This document shows, one piece after another, positions 17,392 to 28,831 of a stretch of 64,000 bases of DNA (its first letter is position 1; the number at the start of each line of letters is the position of its first letter). The notes under the pieces were generated by a model, which had not been told where the DNA came from, ran no database searches, and saw nothing but the letters and a program-made list of their open reading frames with translations. Position numbers and translations under genes: made by a program. The stretch is from Acidobacteriota bacterium (GTDB taxonomy: Bacteria > Acidobacteriota > UBA6911 > RPQK01 > JAJDTT01), in assembly GCA_965218775.1 (NCBI GenBank), contig CBDCLS010000006.1, forward strand, positions 962,071-1,026,070, given 5' to 3'.

Positions 17392-17692
17392 CCATCAACT
17401 CGAGAATTTTCTTAAGGTAAGGCTTCGCTGGAATCGAGACGATACAGATGGTTGCGGTGAGGGTAAAATGGAGGATTTACAAAGGCGAGTGAGTTTTCCA
17501 TCCTCACCGCGCTCCAGTTGCCGCTTAGGTTTTCTCTCCCACAGAACCGCTTCACATCGCCTGTCCGTTGCATGAAGACCTGCTAGGCTTACCCGCCTGA
17601 GTTTCACCTTGTCCCAGAACGAGGCAACCAGAAGGAACGGTTTTTCTATCGACTAGCGAGAGTTCAAGAGGGCCATCCCCGTGCCCGGGGAC

Positions 17693-17817
17693 GAGGAGGG
17701 TCAGGGGGACAGTGGCGCTTCCGTGAGATATAGCCACACACTGGGTCTTTGTTGGAAGGGAGTTTAAGAAAGGAGGCTGCATCTTCTTGCGGCTCCACTG
17801 TCCCCCTGACCTTCCTC
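17693..17817. repeat. Long hairpin: perfect 23-bp inverted repeat (gaggagggtcagggggacagtgg / ccactgtccccctgaccttcctc) around a 79-nt loop
   Basis: Read directly from the sequence. It sits in a roughly 1 kb non-coding stretch after pyc. Confidence 0.8.
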
Positions 17818-17998
17818 TTAACTACACCAGCCGATTCGCCGCCTGTCGCTACAGAGCGCTAGGCAGGCCCACCGAACTTTGAACCCGAGAAGATCTCGTA
17901 ACAACAACACCCGAATCCTTGTGCATAGTAGCACGGTGTGGTGATAGAAAATGGATGGCGGTGAGAGGCCGTAGGGTCCCGAATCAATTCCCACACCC

Positions 17999-18274
17999 CT
18001 AGTACAGCGTTCTGTAAATACCGATACGTTTGTGGCGAGCGCGACGGGTCGAGTTCGCGAAGCGACGCCGAACTCGATGCTTTGTATCTTGGAGGAGGCG
18101 CGACAAAGAAATCGGCGCGTCCCGTCGCCACCCGTAGGGCAGATGCGGGTTGCGGACGATCTCTGTGTGGGTCGTCGTCGAAGATGGCCAAGCATCGTCT
18201 TCCTCCTCCTGCCTTGATCTCGCCTCGCAAACCCCATCTGCAAACGTATCGGTATTTACAGAACGCTGTACTAG
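17999..18274. repeat. MITE-like palindromic element, copy A: 34-bp terminal inverted repeats (ctagtacagcgttctgtaaataccgatacgtttg) with a conserved core
   Basis: Perfect 34-bp terminal inverted repeats. The roughly 95-nt core (gggttgcgg.cgatctctg...tcgtcgtcgaagatggccaagcatcgtcttcctcctcctgccttgatctcgcctcgcaa.cccca) is shared with 39214-39493. Confidence 0.8.
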
Positions 18275-18362
18275 TAGGCAGGAACATGAATACTGCTACG
18301 TTGTGTAAATGGGGCTTGCGAGGCGAGATCGAGGAGGGATTCTACTAGCGACCAATCCCTCA

Positions 18363-18836
18363 TCATTCTCCGGAACGACGCACGCACAAGGCCCCGTGCC
18401 TGTAGGAGTAGGCGAGGTGGAGGTGGCTGCGCCTGCCGATGCCGAAATAGAAAAACCAGGCTCGATCCGAGCCTTCCTTGCTGGAACTCCAGGTGCAACA
18501 GCGGGTCAGCTTGAAGGGTGACCTGATTTTGTAGCGAGCCTCCATACTTGGATTGTGAAGTGCTTCCAACTCGTCAATGGTCGGCAATCTCCAGTCCGAA
18601 TGGCCTTCGAGCCTCAGATCCTCACAGTATCTCTTGGCTGAGGGCCAATCGATGTGGGCGCCATTGTCCTTTCTCGTCCACATCAGGCCGGTTTGAGAAT
18701 CCACGACCAGATCATCTGAGACGGCGGGTCGAGGCGGCTCCACACTCTTTGCCCCACCCACCGCCAGGGTGCTGCTGAGGAAAAGCAACACAGTACAAAT
18801 CGGGGTCAGAGTGATAGAACTTCGAGTGATTCTCAT
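18363..18836 (-). CDS. Secreted DUF1566 (Lcl C-terminal domain) family protein
   Basis: Signal peptide after the Met at 18836. Motifs GLMWTR and DWRLPTIDEL are typical of DUF1566. Confidence 0.55.
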   Translation of the reverse strand: MRITRSSITLTPICTVLLFLSSTLAVGGAKSVEPPRPAVSDDLVVDSQTGLMWTRKDNGAHIDWPSAKRYCEDLRLEGHSDWRLPTIDELEALHNPSMEARYKIRSPFKLTRCCTWSSSKEGSDRAWFFYFGIGRRSHLHLAYSYRHGALCVRRSGE

Positions 18837-18901
18837 TGGAACCTCCTTACTGTTGGGTCTATTGCATCCCGGACAATTCAATCAGCGATTGCCGTCGCAG
18901 G

Positions 18902-26085: not shown

Positions 26086-26125
26086 AAGGACATAATACCA
26101 TTACCGTACCGCGAGCGGGTGTTAA

Positions 26126-26160
26126 AAATGTCGGCATATTTTCGCGTTTGCCGACATTTA
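26126..26160. promoter_or_regulatory. Putative AbiEi operator: near-perfect inverted repeat aaaatgtcggca-N12-tgccgacattt, 40-75 nt upstream of abiEi
   Basis: Palindrome read directly from the sequence. AbiEi antitoxins are known to autoregulate by binding inverted repeats in their promoter. Confidence 0.5.
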
Positions 26161-26170
26161 AGTACAATGA

Positions 26171-28309
26171 TCACGGTTTTCCACTTTGGTAGGACGACCC
26201 CGTGACGGATGCCAGCATTTTGACGATGTCGCTCTCAATCGCCTGGATATCCGCCTCGATCTCCTCCAGCGGCCTTGGCGGGCGATATTCGTAGAAGTAG
26301 CGGTTGAAGTTGATCTCGTAGCCCACGATTCCCACCTGGCCATCTTGGCTGTCTCGCCGGCCAGTGTCTATCCAAGCATCGGGAACGTGCGGCTGGACCT
26401 CTCGCTCGAAGAACGCTTCGACGCTCTCCGACAGAGGGACGCTCTCGGTGTCGCGCAGCTCCGGATCGGGCTCCGGACGTCCCTCCTTGTCGAGGCACAT
26501 CCTGGCCTCTTCGTTGCGCTCAGACAGGGCTGAGAGGATGGCTCTCTTGATCGGAGCAGACAGTTTGACGTCGGCCCTGGGAGCCGCTTCAGCCAGCATT
26601 GACTCGAACTCGGCTCGATCCTGACAGAGCTGATCGGGAAGACCTTGGAGAAGCTGACGGACGGCCGCTTGCAGGGCGCGCCCCGCCGCTTCGTCCTCGG
26701 CCTTGGCAGGCCCTCTCCTGCGGGACACAGCCAGATTGTGGAAGCCACGCTGCTCGTCCAGTCGAGCGATGCGCTCGGGTGTGGACTGGAAGTCGAGGCG
26801 CAGCGGGCGCTCGACTGTAATCTTCCGAAAGCCGAAGTGGGTGTTGGGGTAGATCCGGCTCACGACCACGTCCCGCTCTTCTCCGTCCTGCTGGATACTG
26901 CGGGTCTCGCCGTCCTGGAAGTCTGTGAGCAGCCGCAGGATGTCCTGCTTCTTTTCGAAGGGGATCTCCCTGCGCTTGGCACCCAGACTTCTCCTGAGGG
27001 GCACCCAGAACGAGCTGGCGTCAATCAGTTGTACCCTGCCCCGGCGCGCGCGGGCCTTTCGATTGGTTAGGACCCAGACGTAGGTGGCGATTCCCGTGTT
27101 GTAGAAGAGCTGCTCCGGCAACGCGATCAGGGCCTCCAGGAGATCGTTCTCCAGGATCCATCGCCGGATCTCACTCTCGCCGCTCCCGGCATCACCGGTG
27201 AAGAGGGGGGATCCGTTCATGATGATGGCGATACGGGATCCGCCCCTCTCGGGCTCTTTCTCGTGGGCCAGCATGTGGAGAAGGAACAAGAGCTGCCCAT
27301 CGCTGATACGGGGAAGGCCTGGTCCAAAGCGTCCAGCCGCGCCCCGCTCGTTCTCGGCCCGGACGGCGTCCTGGTCACGCTTCCAGTCTTTCCCATAGGG
27401 TGGATTGGCAATGAGGTAGTCGAAGTTGACACCGGCGTGCTGGTCATTGGACAGCGTACTCCCGAAGGCGATGTTCTCGGCGTCGCGCCCGTCCGCGGAT
27501 TTCATGTAGAGGTCCGACTTGCTCACCGCCCAGGTCTCCGGGTTCACTTCCTGTCCAAAGAGGTGAATATCAGCCTCCTCATTGACTGGACCTCGTATCC
27601 TGACGTCATCACGGCGCTCACCGACGGTGATGTGCTCCTTGGCGATGGTGAGCATCCCGCCCGAACCGCAGCAGGGGTCATAGACCGTCAGGACGACACC
27701 CTTCTTGCCCAGTCGCCCCTCTTCCCCAAACACCAGGAGATCCACCATGAGATGGATGACGTCGCGGGGCGTGAAGTGCTCACCGGGATTTTCGTTCAAC
27801 GCCTCGTTGAACTTCCGGATGAGCTCCTCGAATATGGTCCCCATTTTGAAGTTGTCCACTACGTCCGGGTGGAGGTTCACACGCTGCGGGTCGCCGAAAC
27901 GCTGCATCACCTGGAAGAGAAGGCCTGACTCGTCCAGCTTGCTGATGGTGTTGTCAAAGTCGAATTTCTCCAACACCTCCCGCATATTTGGGCTGAAGCC
28001 GGCGATGTAGTTTCGGAGGTTCTGGGCGATGTGGGGGGCATCGTCCAGGAGCCTCTGAAAGTCGTAGCGGGAGGTGTTGTAGAAGGCAAAGCCCGAGGCC
28101 CGTCGGAGGAGGGGATCCAGGTTGTCGATTTCGCTCTTGTACTTCGCCTGGACTTCCAGGACCGTGGGCTTGGTCGGAGCCAGCACGCAGTCAAGACGGC
28201 GCAGGACCGTCAGCGGAAGGATGACATCCTGGTATTTTCCCCGTTTGAAGGTGTCGCGGATCAGGTCCGCTACCCCCCAGATGAAGCTGACGACCTCGCT
28301 ATGGTTCAT
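26171..28309 (-). CDS. hsdM: Type I restriction-modification DNA methyltransferase subunit (HsdM), long form with a roughly 200-aa C-terminal extension
   Basis: N6-adenine methyltransferase motifs (DPCCGSGGML motif I; NPPYG motif IV). 712 aa. Confidence 0.88.
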   Translation of the reverse strand: MNHSEVVSFIWGVADLIRDTFKRGKYQDVILPLTVLRRLDCVLAPTKPTVLEVQAKYKSEIDNLDPLLRRASGFAFYNTSRYDFQRLLDDAPHIAQNLRNYIAGFSPNMREVLEKFDFDNTISKLDESGLLFQVMQRFGDPQRVNLHPDVVDNFKMGTIFEELIRKFNEALNENPGEHFTPRDVIHLMVDLLVFGEEGRLGKKGVVLTVYDPCCGSGGMLTIAKEHITVGERRDDVRIRGPVNEEADIHLFGQEVNPETWAVSKSDLYMKSADGRDAENIAFGSTLSNDQHAGVNFDYLIANPPYGKDWKRDQDAVRAENERGAAGRFGPGLPRISDGQLLFLLHMLAHEKEPERGGSRIAIIMNGSPLFTGDAGSGESEIRRWILENDLLEALIALPEQLFYNTGIATYVWVLTNRKARARRGRVQLIDASSFWVPLRRSLGAKRREIPFEKKQDILRLLTDFQDGETRSIQQDGEERDVVVSRIYPNTHFGFRKITVERPLRLDFQSTPERIARLDEQRGFHNLAVSRRRGPAKAEDEAAGRALQAAVRQLLQGLPDQLCQDRAEFESMLAEAAPRADVKLSAPIKRAILSALSERNEEARMCLDKEGRPEPDPELRDTESVPLSESVEAFFEREVQPHVPDAWIDTGRRDSQDGQVGIVGYEINFNRYFYEYRPPRPLEEIEADIQAIESDIVKMLASVTGSSYQSGKP

Positions 28310-28755
28310 GGTCCCGTCCCGTACAAGATAGAGTGGCGCACGACCGCCCGCACGTTGTGCGCCTCAACTCACTTCCTCTGACTGGTTCAGAGCATCTTAC
28401 ATGGTCTCCTCAGATACGTCGATGGTGATATTGGTATCCTAGAAATCGCGTCTCTATGAGCGTTCGACTCTGGTGGCATTCGCAGCTACAGGACACAGGT
28501 TTTGTGGTCGCTCCGGACAAACCAAATGCGGAGTTCTGGTTGTCCTAGGTGTGCTCCCCTTGGACACCATTCTTTGCTGGTGAGGCACCATCAAAACCTT
28601 CAAAAGCCCCTTCTTGACCCTTTTGATGGTTTTATAGGTCCCTCTCCCGGACCTTATTGGTTCTCTTGAGCTCTTGGATGGCCTGCCTGTAACTTGATAA
28701 GGGACTAGCTTAGCTATCTTTCCTGGTTAAGCTGTTTCTTACCAGATAAATAGAG

Positions 28756-28831
28756 TGGTGAGCCGCCAGGGAATCGAACCCCGAACCTACTGATTAAGAG
28801 TCAGTTGCTCTGCCAATTGAGCTAGCGGCCC
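28756..28831 (-). tRNA. tRNA-Lys (anticodon CTT), CCA encoded
   Basis: The reverse complement folds as a cloverleaf: GGGCCGC acceptor, anticodon stem ACTGA/TCAGT with loop CTCTTAA, T-arm GGTTCGATTCC, and a 3' ACCA end. Confidence 0.85.

Follow-up and report, generated by a model that had tools for sequence, protein, structure and literature searches.

A type I restriction–modification cassette with an embedded AbiE module beside tRNA-Lys(CUU) in an Acidobacteriota genome: a probable horizontally acquired defence island

In a stretch of 64,000 nt from an Acidobacteriota bacterium (assembly GCA_965218775.1, contig CBDCLS010000006.1, positions 962,071 to 1,026,070; hereafter “the window”), five large open reading frames (ORFs) on the minus strand span 19559–28309 in the order hsdM, abiEi, abiEii, hsdS, and hsdR, immediately next to a gene for tRNA-Lys(CUU). 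The region that contains them, 19227–28755, is probably a horizontally acquired five-gene defence cassette, which combines a type I restriction–modification (R-M) system with a self-regulated AbiE module and was delivered by an element that has since decayed. The evidence is of four kinds: profile matches and intact motifs in the five proteins, absence of the block from the same locus in related genomes, recurrence of the same five genes as a unit in unrelated surroundings, and a conserved palindrome upstream of abiEi. An earlier note on this DNA, made from the letters and an ORF list alone, had described the locus as a defence island in which an AbiE pair interrupts a type I R-M operon; how its individual claims fared is given below with the results that bear on them.

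Results

Gene layout and junctions

The tRNA-Lys(CUU) gene (28756–28831, minus strand), located by ARAGORN and scoring 67.7 bits in Rfam, has its 3′ end pointing toward hsdM and lies 446 nt from the hsdM start. These 446 nt (28310–28755, minus strand) are an island-specific non-coding spacer, which presumably carries the hsdM promoter; it matches the same-species contig L081 alone, and no relative or other cassette copy (L numbers denote the contigs and loci compared). There follow, all on the minus strand, hsdM (26171–28309, 712 aa), an intergenic region of 85 nt (26086–26170), abiEi (25420–26085, 221 aa), abiEii (24461–25423, 320 aa), hsdS (23104–24468, 454 aa), and hsdR (19559–23107, 1182 aa). 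While hsdM and abiEi are separated by this gap, the remaining four genes overlap one another: the abiEi stop and the abiEii start share an ATGA of 4 nt (25423–25420), 8 nt (ATGTCTGA) are common to the abiEii stop and the hsdS start, upstream of which is a Shine-Dalgarno-like GAAGGAG, and the hsdS stop and hsdR start again share a 4-nt ATGA. The gene order proposed in the earlier note is thus borne out by ORF calls and profile matches, its three overlaps are confirmed from the sequence, and its statement that the block directly abuts the tRNA 3′ end agrees with ARAGORN, Rfam, and a break in homology at 28756.

Assignment of the five proteins

Profile searches with Pfam and PADLOC support the Hsd and AbiE assignments made in the earlier note for all five genes, and inspection of the sequences finds the catalytic motifs of HsdM, HsdR, and AbiEii intact. 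HsdM matches N6_Mtase (187.6 bits) and HsdM_N (85.6 bits) in Pfam and, over its full length, the PADLOC profile MTase_I PDLC03029 (887 bits); it has DPCCGSG at residue 211 (S-adenosylmethionine-binding motif I) and NPPY at residue 302 (catalytic motif IV), and its closest PDB relatives by sequence are type I M subunits. The C-terminal extension of HsdM (residues 436–712, i.e., 277 residues; window 26174–27004) has no Pfam match. This extension is covered by PDLC03029, and its length is kept across the cassette family, in which HsdM measures 694–727 aa.

HsdS is recognized by Pfam (Methylase_S, 25.6 bits against a cut-off of 22) and, over its full length, by PADLOC (Specificity_I, 350 bits, residues 39–478 of the longest ORF). 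The repeat SGVEW(I/L)G..P.HW occurs in it twice, the central and C-terminal conserved helices are both present, and the protein is predicted to be a specificity subunit with two target-recognition domains. HsdR matches HSDR_N, ResIII, SWI2_SNF2, T1R_D3-like, and SLFN_AlbA_2 (68.8 bits) in Pfam, REase_I in PADLOC (120 bits), and EcoR124I HsdR in the PDB (E = 5.8e-14); E178-I-K, GSGKS (333), and DEAH (437) represent the PD-(D/E)xK nuclease, the Walker A motif, and the superfamily 2 motor. The curated NCBIfam models score both proteins below their cut-offs (TIGR00497 hsdM, 87.2 bits versus 242.75; TIGR00348 hsdR, 217.2 bits versus 284.55), so that the R-M family is divergent, although each assignment holds at the level of domains.

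A Schlafen/AlbA_2 domain is fused to the C-terminus of HsdR (residues 1025–1161; window 19625–20035). The AlbA_2 part is a separate 126-aa ORF in L082 (15491–15871), and the HsdR proteins of L106 and L111, which are shorter, lack it. On the short contig L104 an AlbA_2-like ORF (1676–2032), which matches the C-terminus of HsdR, directly follows abiEii.

AbiEi matches AbiEi_4 in Pfam (47.1 bits, cut-off 25) and the PADLOC profile with 216 bits over positions 13–200 of 201; its homologues in the cassettes are 208–223 aa long, and a sequence search of the PDB found no relative. It is, judging from these matches, a winged-helix antitoxin and autorepressor of the AbiE type IV toxin–antitoxin system. 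AbiEii, matched by Pfam AbiEii (138 bits) and PADLOC (321 bits), has a distant PDB relative in AbiGII (9hlo_B, E = 1.6e-20). The motifs defined for this toxin family (I, hG[GSA]; II, R..DhD with x15 spacing; III, K; IV, +DxxD; PMC3985639) are all intact, as G58-A59, R71/D75/D77 with the x15 spacing, K184, and R199-D200-F-W-D203. AbiEii is accordingly annotated as a predicted DUF1814 nucleotidyltransferase toxin of the DNA polymerase β type.

The block at the tRNA-Lys locus of relatives

Synteny around the neighboring gene pyc was uninformative: among the matches listed for GTDB species representatives, none had a tRNA-Lys within 10 kb or shared neighbors, and the best of those listed reached 54–67% identity, the closest being Planctomycetota metagenome-assembled genomes. 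Usable relatives were obtained instead through homologues, labelled Acidobacteriota, of the VanZ-like gene that abuts the tRNA. These are five contigs in three distinct arrangements (L087; L088–L090; L091).

The most complete comparison is with L087, which is collinear with window positions 9047–42459 at ≈85–89% nucleotide identity and has the order pyc, 6 bp, DUF1566 gene, a 172-aa thioredoxin-like gene, tRNA-Lys(CUU), VanZ. It lacks window positions 19222–28755; the alignment ends at 19221 and restarts exactly at 28756, the tRNA 3′ end. Homology to L091 likewise starts at 28756, and in L088–L090 it extends 7 nt further, to 28749. L088–L090 and L091 have the same tRNA and right flank; at the 3′ side of the tRNA their cargo is unrelated and consists of unknown ORFs together with a flagellin in one arrangement, and of two IS1595 copies, SocA_Panacea, and TM2 in the other. 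The segment is thus not conserved in the tRNA-Lys neighborhoods of relatives, which was the comparison that the earlier note had proposed. The cassette is present in the same-species contig L081, with an identical AbiEii and 8 mismatches in 15,152 nt (ENA contig).

At the left border, the last 30 codons of the thioredoxin-like gene are left in the window (19137–19226, minus strand), as found by tblastn (residues 143–172 of the L087 protein, 56.7% identity, E = 3e-4) and by blastn (L087 9253–9365 versus window 19110–19221, 78% identity). Since only this remnant stands in the window and the gene is intact in L087, the thioredoxin-bearing state is the older one; the cassette came in, and the gene was mostly lost. 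Between the remnant and hsdR lies a frameshifted N-terminal fragment (19227–19482, minus strand), identified by three-frame translation. The peptide stitched over its two frameshifts matches phrog_4102, “terminase small subunit,” with E = 2.9e-19 over positions 8–84 of 166, and in Pfam gives weak helix-turn-helix matches only. This fragment appears to be phage or satellite debris at the left end of the island, adjoining hsdR. The “transposase-like” debris that the earlier note had seen at 19.2–19.5 kb was rejected in favor of these two features, the terminase-like fragment and the thioredoxin remnant.

From these alignments, the tRNA-Lys(CUU) 3′ side appears to be a cargo-exchange hotspot in this lineage and the block to be an insertion, with an estimated extent of about 19227–28755, or ≈9.5 kb. 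The island proposed in the earlier note thus stands, as the block is absent from L087 and L088–L091, while its extent of 11.4 kb (17392–28831) needed correction.

Recurrence of the cassette

The AbiEii of the window has thousands of homologues in a database search. A scan of metagenomes gave 80 loci, which we then searched by tblastn with the window proteins. The same five genes in the same order, in different neighborhoods, recur at 61–71% identity in L082/83, L084–86, L176/177 (labelled Chloroflexi), and L178/179 (labelled Acidobacteriota); altogether, the cassette occurs as a unit in unrelated contexts in L082/83, L084–86, L097, L098, L100–103, L105–107, L111, L112, and L176–179. Wherever AbiEii identity is at least ≈48% and enough flank was captured, all five genes are found on one strand, the exceptions being L099 and L104, and the identities in those loci are 69–80% for hsdM, 29–54% for hsdS, and 64–82% for hsdR. 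Approximately 60 metagenome loci at or below 48% AbiEii identity have no hsd genes (with the exception of L138, L140, and L152, which have weak or fragmentary hsdM matches nearby), and neither do four plasmid AbiEii homologues at 42–46% identity. On this pattern, the association of this AbiE clade with the R-M family would be both old and specific. The “interrupted” operon of the earlier note is correct in that the AbiE pair sits between hsdM and hsdS, but it understates the arrangement, in which the five genes form a recurrent cassette that moves as a unit.

The junctions were compared across independent contigs with 48–72% AbiEii identity. The 4/8/4-nt overlaps are kept exactly in the closest copies (L082–L086). 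Most loci examined have the 4-nt abiEi/abiEii overlap, and L082, L084, L096, and L102 have the 8-nt abiEii/hsdS overlap; other members of the cassette family have an abiEii/hsdS overlap of 4 or 17 nt, or cargo at the junction. In Mantel tests on pairwise-identity matrices (n = 11 loci), the strongest correlation is between hsdM and hsdR (r = 0.81, p = 0.001), followed by abiEi and abiEii (r = 0.62, p = 0.014), abiEii and hsdR (r = 0.50, p = 0.04), and abiEii and hsdM (r = 0.37, p = 0.08), with abiEi versus the R-M genes at r = 0.27–0.31. The abiE genes evolve faster than the hsd genes, with mean identities of 56–57% versus 73–74%.

One homologous cassette lies in a complete 14.6-kb integrative island (L084 3046–17749, also L085 and L086), which contains, in order, tRNA-Cys, an integrase, MerR/HTH_17, several further genes including a PTP-like phosphatase, the cassette, a DDE transposase, and a 45-nt repeat. 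In L084 and L086 the island is enclosed by the tRNA-Cys on one side and, on the other, by a perfect direct repeat of its 3′ end, 45 nt long; L086 has an extra DDE transposase inserted beside the integrase. A comparison of the non-coding flanks across cassette copies found no conserved end sequence, so that the borders of the cassette are not definable at the DNA level.

Embedded-clade AbiE (64% identity) also occurs upstream of a type III-like R-M system in L099, which is on the same contig as L181, and L180 has the same arrangement (abiEii at 7001–7960; the R-M system consists of a 1001-aa ResIII protein and an 892-aa N6_N4_Mtase). A 19-codon hsdS stub is kept after abiEii in L099/L180, which suggests that the type I genes were replaced while AbiE stayed. 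Furthermore, other cassette copies have extra genes embedded at various junctions, namely Fic, ImmA/IrrE with DUF4411, a DUF1016/YhcG nuclease, DUF3644, and DUF5655 (L098 9351–10403; L103 5305–6953; L106 7770–9086; L112 4741–5844; L105 5226–6278; L176 9339–10397 and 14162–14960), and the cassette of L176 is followed by Thoeris genes (ThsB_TIR, ThsA_Macro). This R-M family would seem, from its gene content, to be a landing pad for accessory defence genes.

A palindrome and promoter-like site upstream of abiEi

The hsdM–abiEi gap contains a palindrome with perfect 11-bp arms, AAATGTCGGCA-N12-TGCCGACATTT (26128–26157), whose core is GTCGGC-N14-GCCGAC (26130–26155). It is followed by TTAACA (−35-like) and by TATTAT (−10-like), the latter 6 nt before the abiEi ATG. 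The elements that come after the right arm in L084 and L097 are TTGACA/TTGACT and, at a spacing of 17 nt, TATACT/TATATT, ≈7 nt before the ATG. The core is found upstream of abiEi, sometimes twice, in every cassette locus in which the upstream region was captured, with the exception of L103, where a search upstream of abiEi gave no match. Four abiE loci that stand alone (45% identity) have it too, three of them immediately upstream of abiEi; ≈1.3 Mb of unrelated loci gave one strict match.

The arms are conserved in sequence, the spacer varies without compensatory changes, and the hairpin present in the RNA fold of the hsdM–abiEi spacer is unexceptional (z = −1.33); we therefore read the palindrome as a protein operator rather than an RNA helix. 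There is a precedent in Streptococcus agalactiae, where AbiEi binds 11-bp inverted repeats in its own promoter for negative autoregulation (PMC3985639). The palindrome is thus probably the operator, still putative, of an internal promoter to which AbiEi would bind. As abiEi, abiEii, hsdS, and hsdR overlap by 4, 8, and 4 nt, this internal promoter, together with read-through from hsdM, likely expresses hsdS and hsdR too, and the four genes would be co-transcribed. The earlier note had placed AbiE inside the R-M transcription unit. The pair does not simply belong to the unit of hsdM, since the hsdM–abiEi gap holds the conserved operator-like palindrome and the promoter-like site. Between the window and L081, two of the eight substitutions in 15 kb fall at 26073 (the abiEi start) and 26102 (the putative promoter spacer).

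Other elements in the window

Several features that the earlier note had counted as parts of the island lie outside it. The DUF1566/Lcl_C gene (18363–18881) is conserved backbone. A 62-aa glycine-zipper ORF (18902–19090), which may or may not be a real gene, lies between it and the thioredoxin remnant, both of them backbone; L087 lacks a counterpart of this ORF, and the 330 nt at the equivalent place give no alignment. Between pyc and the DUF1566 gene is a 955-bp non-coding stretch (17390–18344) where L087 has 6 bp, which we take from this comparison to be a separate insertion outside the island. It holds nested elements resembling miniature inverted-repeat transposable elements, among them a 276-bp unit with perfect 34-nt terminal inverted repeats (17999–18032, 18241–18274), as well as two further imperfect inverted-repeat pairs. 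The core of the 276-bp unit has an 80%-identical copy at 39282–39456. An Rfam search over the whole window returned two tRNAs alone, so this 1-kb non-coding stretch matches no known RNA family.

On the other side of the tRNA, a 3.35-kb insertion (29613–32964) between the VanZ-like and PEGA genes is absent from both L081 and L087. It terminates in inverted repeats (GTAGTGTCCTAATTT...AAATTAGGACACTAC) that have a 10-bp duplication (CGGCGGCGGG) on either side, and it encodes an IS1-family transposase (31618–32403, DDE_Tnp_IS1, E = 2.4e-13). A second ORF of 309 aa matches no domain. It looks like a very recent transposon gain. Finally, two families of short dispersed repeats (70–135 nt) are found at 42473–42544, 44548–44682, and 58184–58265, and at 11437–11531 and 52477–52574; the same repeats are intergenic in L087, L088, and L091 as well, and are thus small repeat elements common to the lineage.

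Discussion

The working model

We propose that the cassette landed directly after the tRNA-Lys(CUU) 3′ end, where it would have replaced most of a thioredoxin-like gene, and that the delivering element then decayed, the terminase small subunit-like fragment being its sole trace. In the cell, HsdM2S would methylate the host DNA, and HsdR2M2S would translocate along and cut unmodified incoming DNA as a first line of defence. AbiEi would restrain AbiEii until infection or loss of the cassette upsets the balance; AbiEii would then arrest growth, which may serve both as a second line of defence and to stabilize the cassette, although we infer this defensive and addictive role from the gene families and their arrangement. 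AbiEi would also bind the palindrome in the hsdM–abiEi gap and repress the promoter there, and the supply of HsdS and HsdR would thereby be tied to AbiE autoregulation.

A number of observations weigh against this model. The search for a vehicle gave nothing in the window: no ORF of 17.3–29.6 kb has an integrase domain in Pfam, and tblastn with the proteins of the L084 island, its integrase included, found no remnant of an integrase, excisionase, or transposase in the island, in agreement with the earlier note, which had reported no integrase gene. That note had also proposed a search for a partial direct repeat of the tRNA 3′ end near 17.4–19.6 kb. None was found in the window with probes of 25 nt (up to 3 mismatches), 16 nt, and 12–45 nt, the looser scans having covered 16.5–28.7 kb; a single 16-nt near-match (19716–19731) was rejected, as it lies within hsdR on the strand opposite to the one required and is no more than chance would give. 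With neither integrase nor attachment-site repeat here, any origin by an integrase would be deduced from the L084 island. The guanine-plus-cytosine content of the cassette (0.57–0.64) does not clearly differ from that of the pyc flank (0.59–0.60), the flanks overall being at 0.55–0.60.

Turning to regulation, the −35- and −10-like hexamers of the window are 22 nt apart, compared with 17 nt in the homologues; a scan for consensus promoters and terminators did not call the site, and its counts in the island were near the shuffle expectation. Alternatively or additionally, the palindrome and the T-run behind it might form an RNA hairpin or terminator downstream of hsdM. The R-M family itself, scoring below the NCBIfam cut-offs, is divergent, so that its restriction and methylation activities are predictions from sequence. 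Finally, co-evolution between AbiE and R-M appears to be only moderate, with r of 0.37–0.50 for abiEii and 0.27–0.31 for abiEi.

Alternative explanations

It is highly improbable that the cassette has been at this locus since the common ancestor and that the relatives examined lost or exchanged it. In favor of such a history are the lack of an integrase and of an attachment-site repeat in the window, the lack of a clear compositional anomaly, and a comparison limited to five relatives' contigs with three distinct arrangements; the 3′ remnant of the thioredoxin gene, intact in L087, makes the thioredoxin-bearing state the older one, however, and three different cargo sets are found at the same tRNA 3′ side in the relatives. 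Additionally, a terminase-like pseudogene abuts hsdR, and the same cassette is found in unrelated genomes, once in an island that has an integrase and is bounded by attachment-site repeats. Horizontal acquisition accepted, the AbiE pair might still be a selfish addiction module, inserted in an ancestral type I R-M operon with neither an anti-phage nor a regulatory role and persisting since its loss kills or arrests the cell. AbiE is able to stabilize plasmids (PMC3985639), the module has an operator-like and promoter-like site of its own, its relatives at 42–48% identity are stand-alone plasmid pairs beside replication and recombinase genes, and the faster evolution of abiE noted above is in keeping with such a role. 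We nevertheless consider this doubtful: contigs with AbiEii identities as low as 48% still have the pair in this position and with its junction overlaps, and since most members offer no start region for hsdS alone, the R-M genes have to be expressed by way of the AbiE module. AbiE also gives phage resistance in Lactococcus and Serratia (PMC3985639, PMC7725324), and addiction and defence are not mutually exclusive.

A closer bond between the two components can be imagined. The five genes may be one integrated system, in which AbiEi would control the transcription of hsdS and hsdR in the way that C-proteins do in type II systems, and AbiEii would be a guardian toxin; restriction would be timed to follow entry into a new host, the AbiE clade would be co-adapted with the R-M family, and AbiEii would be released when phage anti-restriction factors or loss of the cassette disturb R-M. 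This is rather unlikely in our judgment. A version modelled on PrrC, in which AbiEi is again the C-protein-like controller of hsdS and hsdR within a single five-gene system, and AbiEii is kept latent also by the R-M complex or its expression until an inhibitor of the Ocr, ArdA, or Stp type releases it, seems decidedly unlikely. This version would account for the almost exclusive residence of one AbiE clade in one R-M family, for the conserved translational coupling of abiEii, hsdS, and hsdR, for the operator-like site upstream of the abiEi–abiEii–hsdS–hsdR block, and for the weak positive co-evolution of abiEii and hsdR (r = 0.50, p = 0.04), and PrrC, embedded in EcoprrI and activated when the enzyme is inhibited (PMC12707154), is a precedent. 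Yet no cassette protein has homology to PrrC or matches it in PADLOC or Pfam, AbiE pairs work alone elsewhere, and the close stand-alone relatives L113–115 and L117 have the same operator. The clade is also found without type I genes, beside the type III-like R-M system of L099/L180, and that other cassette copies have taken up unrelated genes at several of their junctions is more in line with a permissive landing pad than with a tight functional complex. The reading that we prefer thus remains the acquired cassette in which restriction and a self-regulated AbiE module are two lines of defence.

Comparison with known systems

Both components belong to well-known families, and embedding in type I R-M systems is established by PrrC, TgvAB, and DarTG2. 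The AbiE pair itself resembles that described by Dy et al. (2014; PMC3985639) for Streptococcus agalactiae and Lactococcus: both are bicistronic with a 4-nt overlap, and both have an AbiEi_4 winged-helix antitoxin, a DUF1814 toxin with motifs I–IV intact, and a perfect 11-bp inverted repeat upstream, comparable to the IR1/IR2 operator. Unlike that system, the pair here separates hsdM from hsdS, and the end of its toxin gene runs into hsdS. There is a single palindrome in place of two inverted repeats, with a different half-site (GTCGGCA) and spacing, and the −10-like box is only 6 nt from the ATG.

PrrC in the type IC system EcoprrI (PMC12707154) is likewise an abortive-infection gene that lies, in the same orientation, within a type I R-M cluster, and shares the concept of restriction backed by a suicide or growth-arrest module. 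It is, however, a single-gene tRNA-Lys anticodon nuclease between hsdS and hsdR that lacks an antitoxin and is kept under control through its binding to the R-M enzyme, whereas a two-gene toxin–antitoxin pair with its own repressor, without homology to PrrC, lies here between hsdM and hsdS. Embedded modules are also known from the RptR-controlled type I R-M locus of enteropathogenic Escherichia coli, where the toxin–antitoxin module DarTG2 is carried on a genomic island (PMC12255303), and from the type I R-M locus of VPI-2 in Vibrio cholerae, where the type IV restriction system TgvAB is embedded (PMC12409362, PMC11411939). DarTG2 and TgvAB lie between hsdS and hsdR and belong to different protein families. 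The likeness to the DarTG2 locus extends to its regulation, as RptR is a small, palindrome-recognizing DNA-binding repressor that controls a composite operon; RptR is a separate first gene of its island, whereas here the antitoxin itself would be the regulator, and hsdM and hsdS do not adjoin.

A “guilt-by-embedding” survey (Payne et al., 2024; bioRxiv 10.1101/2024.01.29.577857) describes type I R-M loci as frequently having embedded genes, many of them known defence systems, with embedding on the same strand in 96.7% of cases. Its main text does not include AbiE, and neither the fidelity of this AbiE clade to a single R-M family nor its conserved operator is described there; a search of the supplement for AbiE returned only Pfam labels of AAA_21 as “putative AbiEii,” which are irrelevant. 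A full-text literature search found no description of AbiE between hsdM and hsdS, which is weak evidence of novelty.

Implications

For annotation, the comparison with relatives fixes the true borders of the island. The cassette illustrates cleanly, in a natural setting, how two layers of defence can be packaged and moved as one unit, and the supply of HsdS and HsdR in it may depend on the autoregulation of a toxin–antitoxin system. If this is true, it would add transcriptional control to type I R-M systems, for which mainly post-translational control is known, and would extend the list of abortive-infection modules embedded in R-M systems beyond PrrC, DarTG2, and TgvAB.

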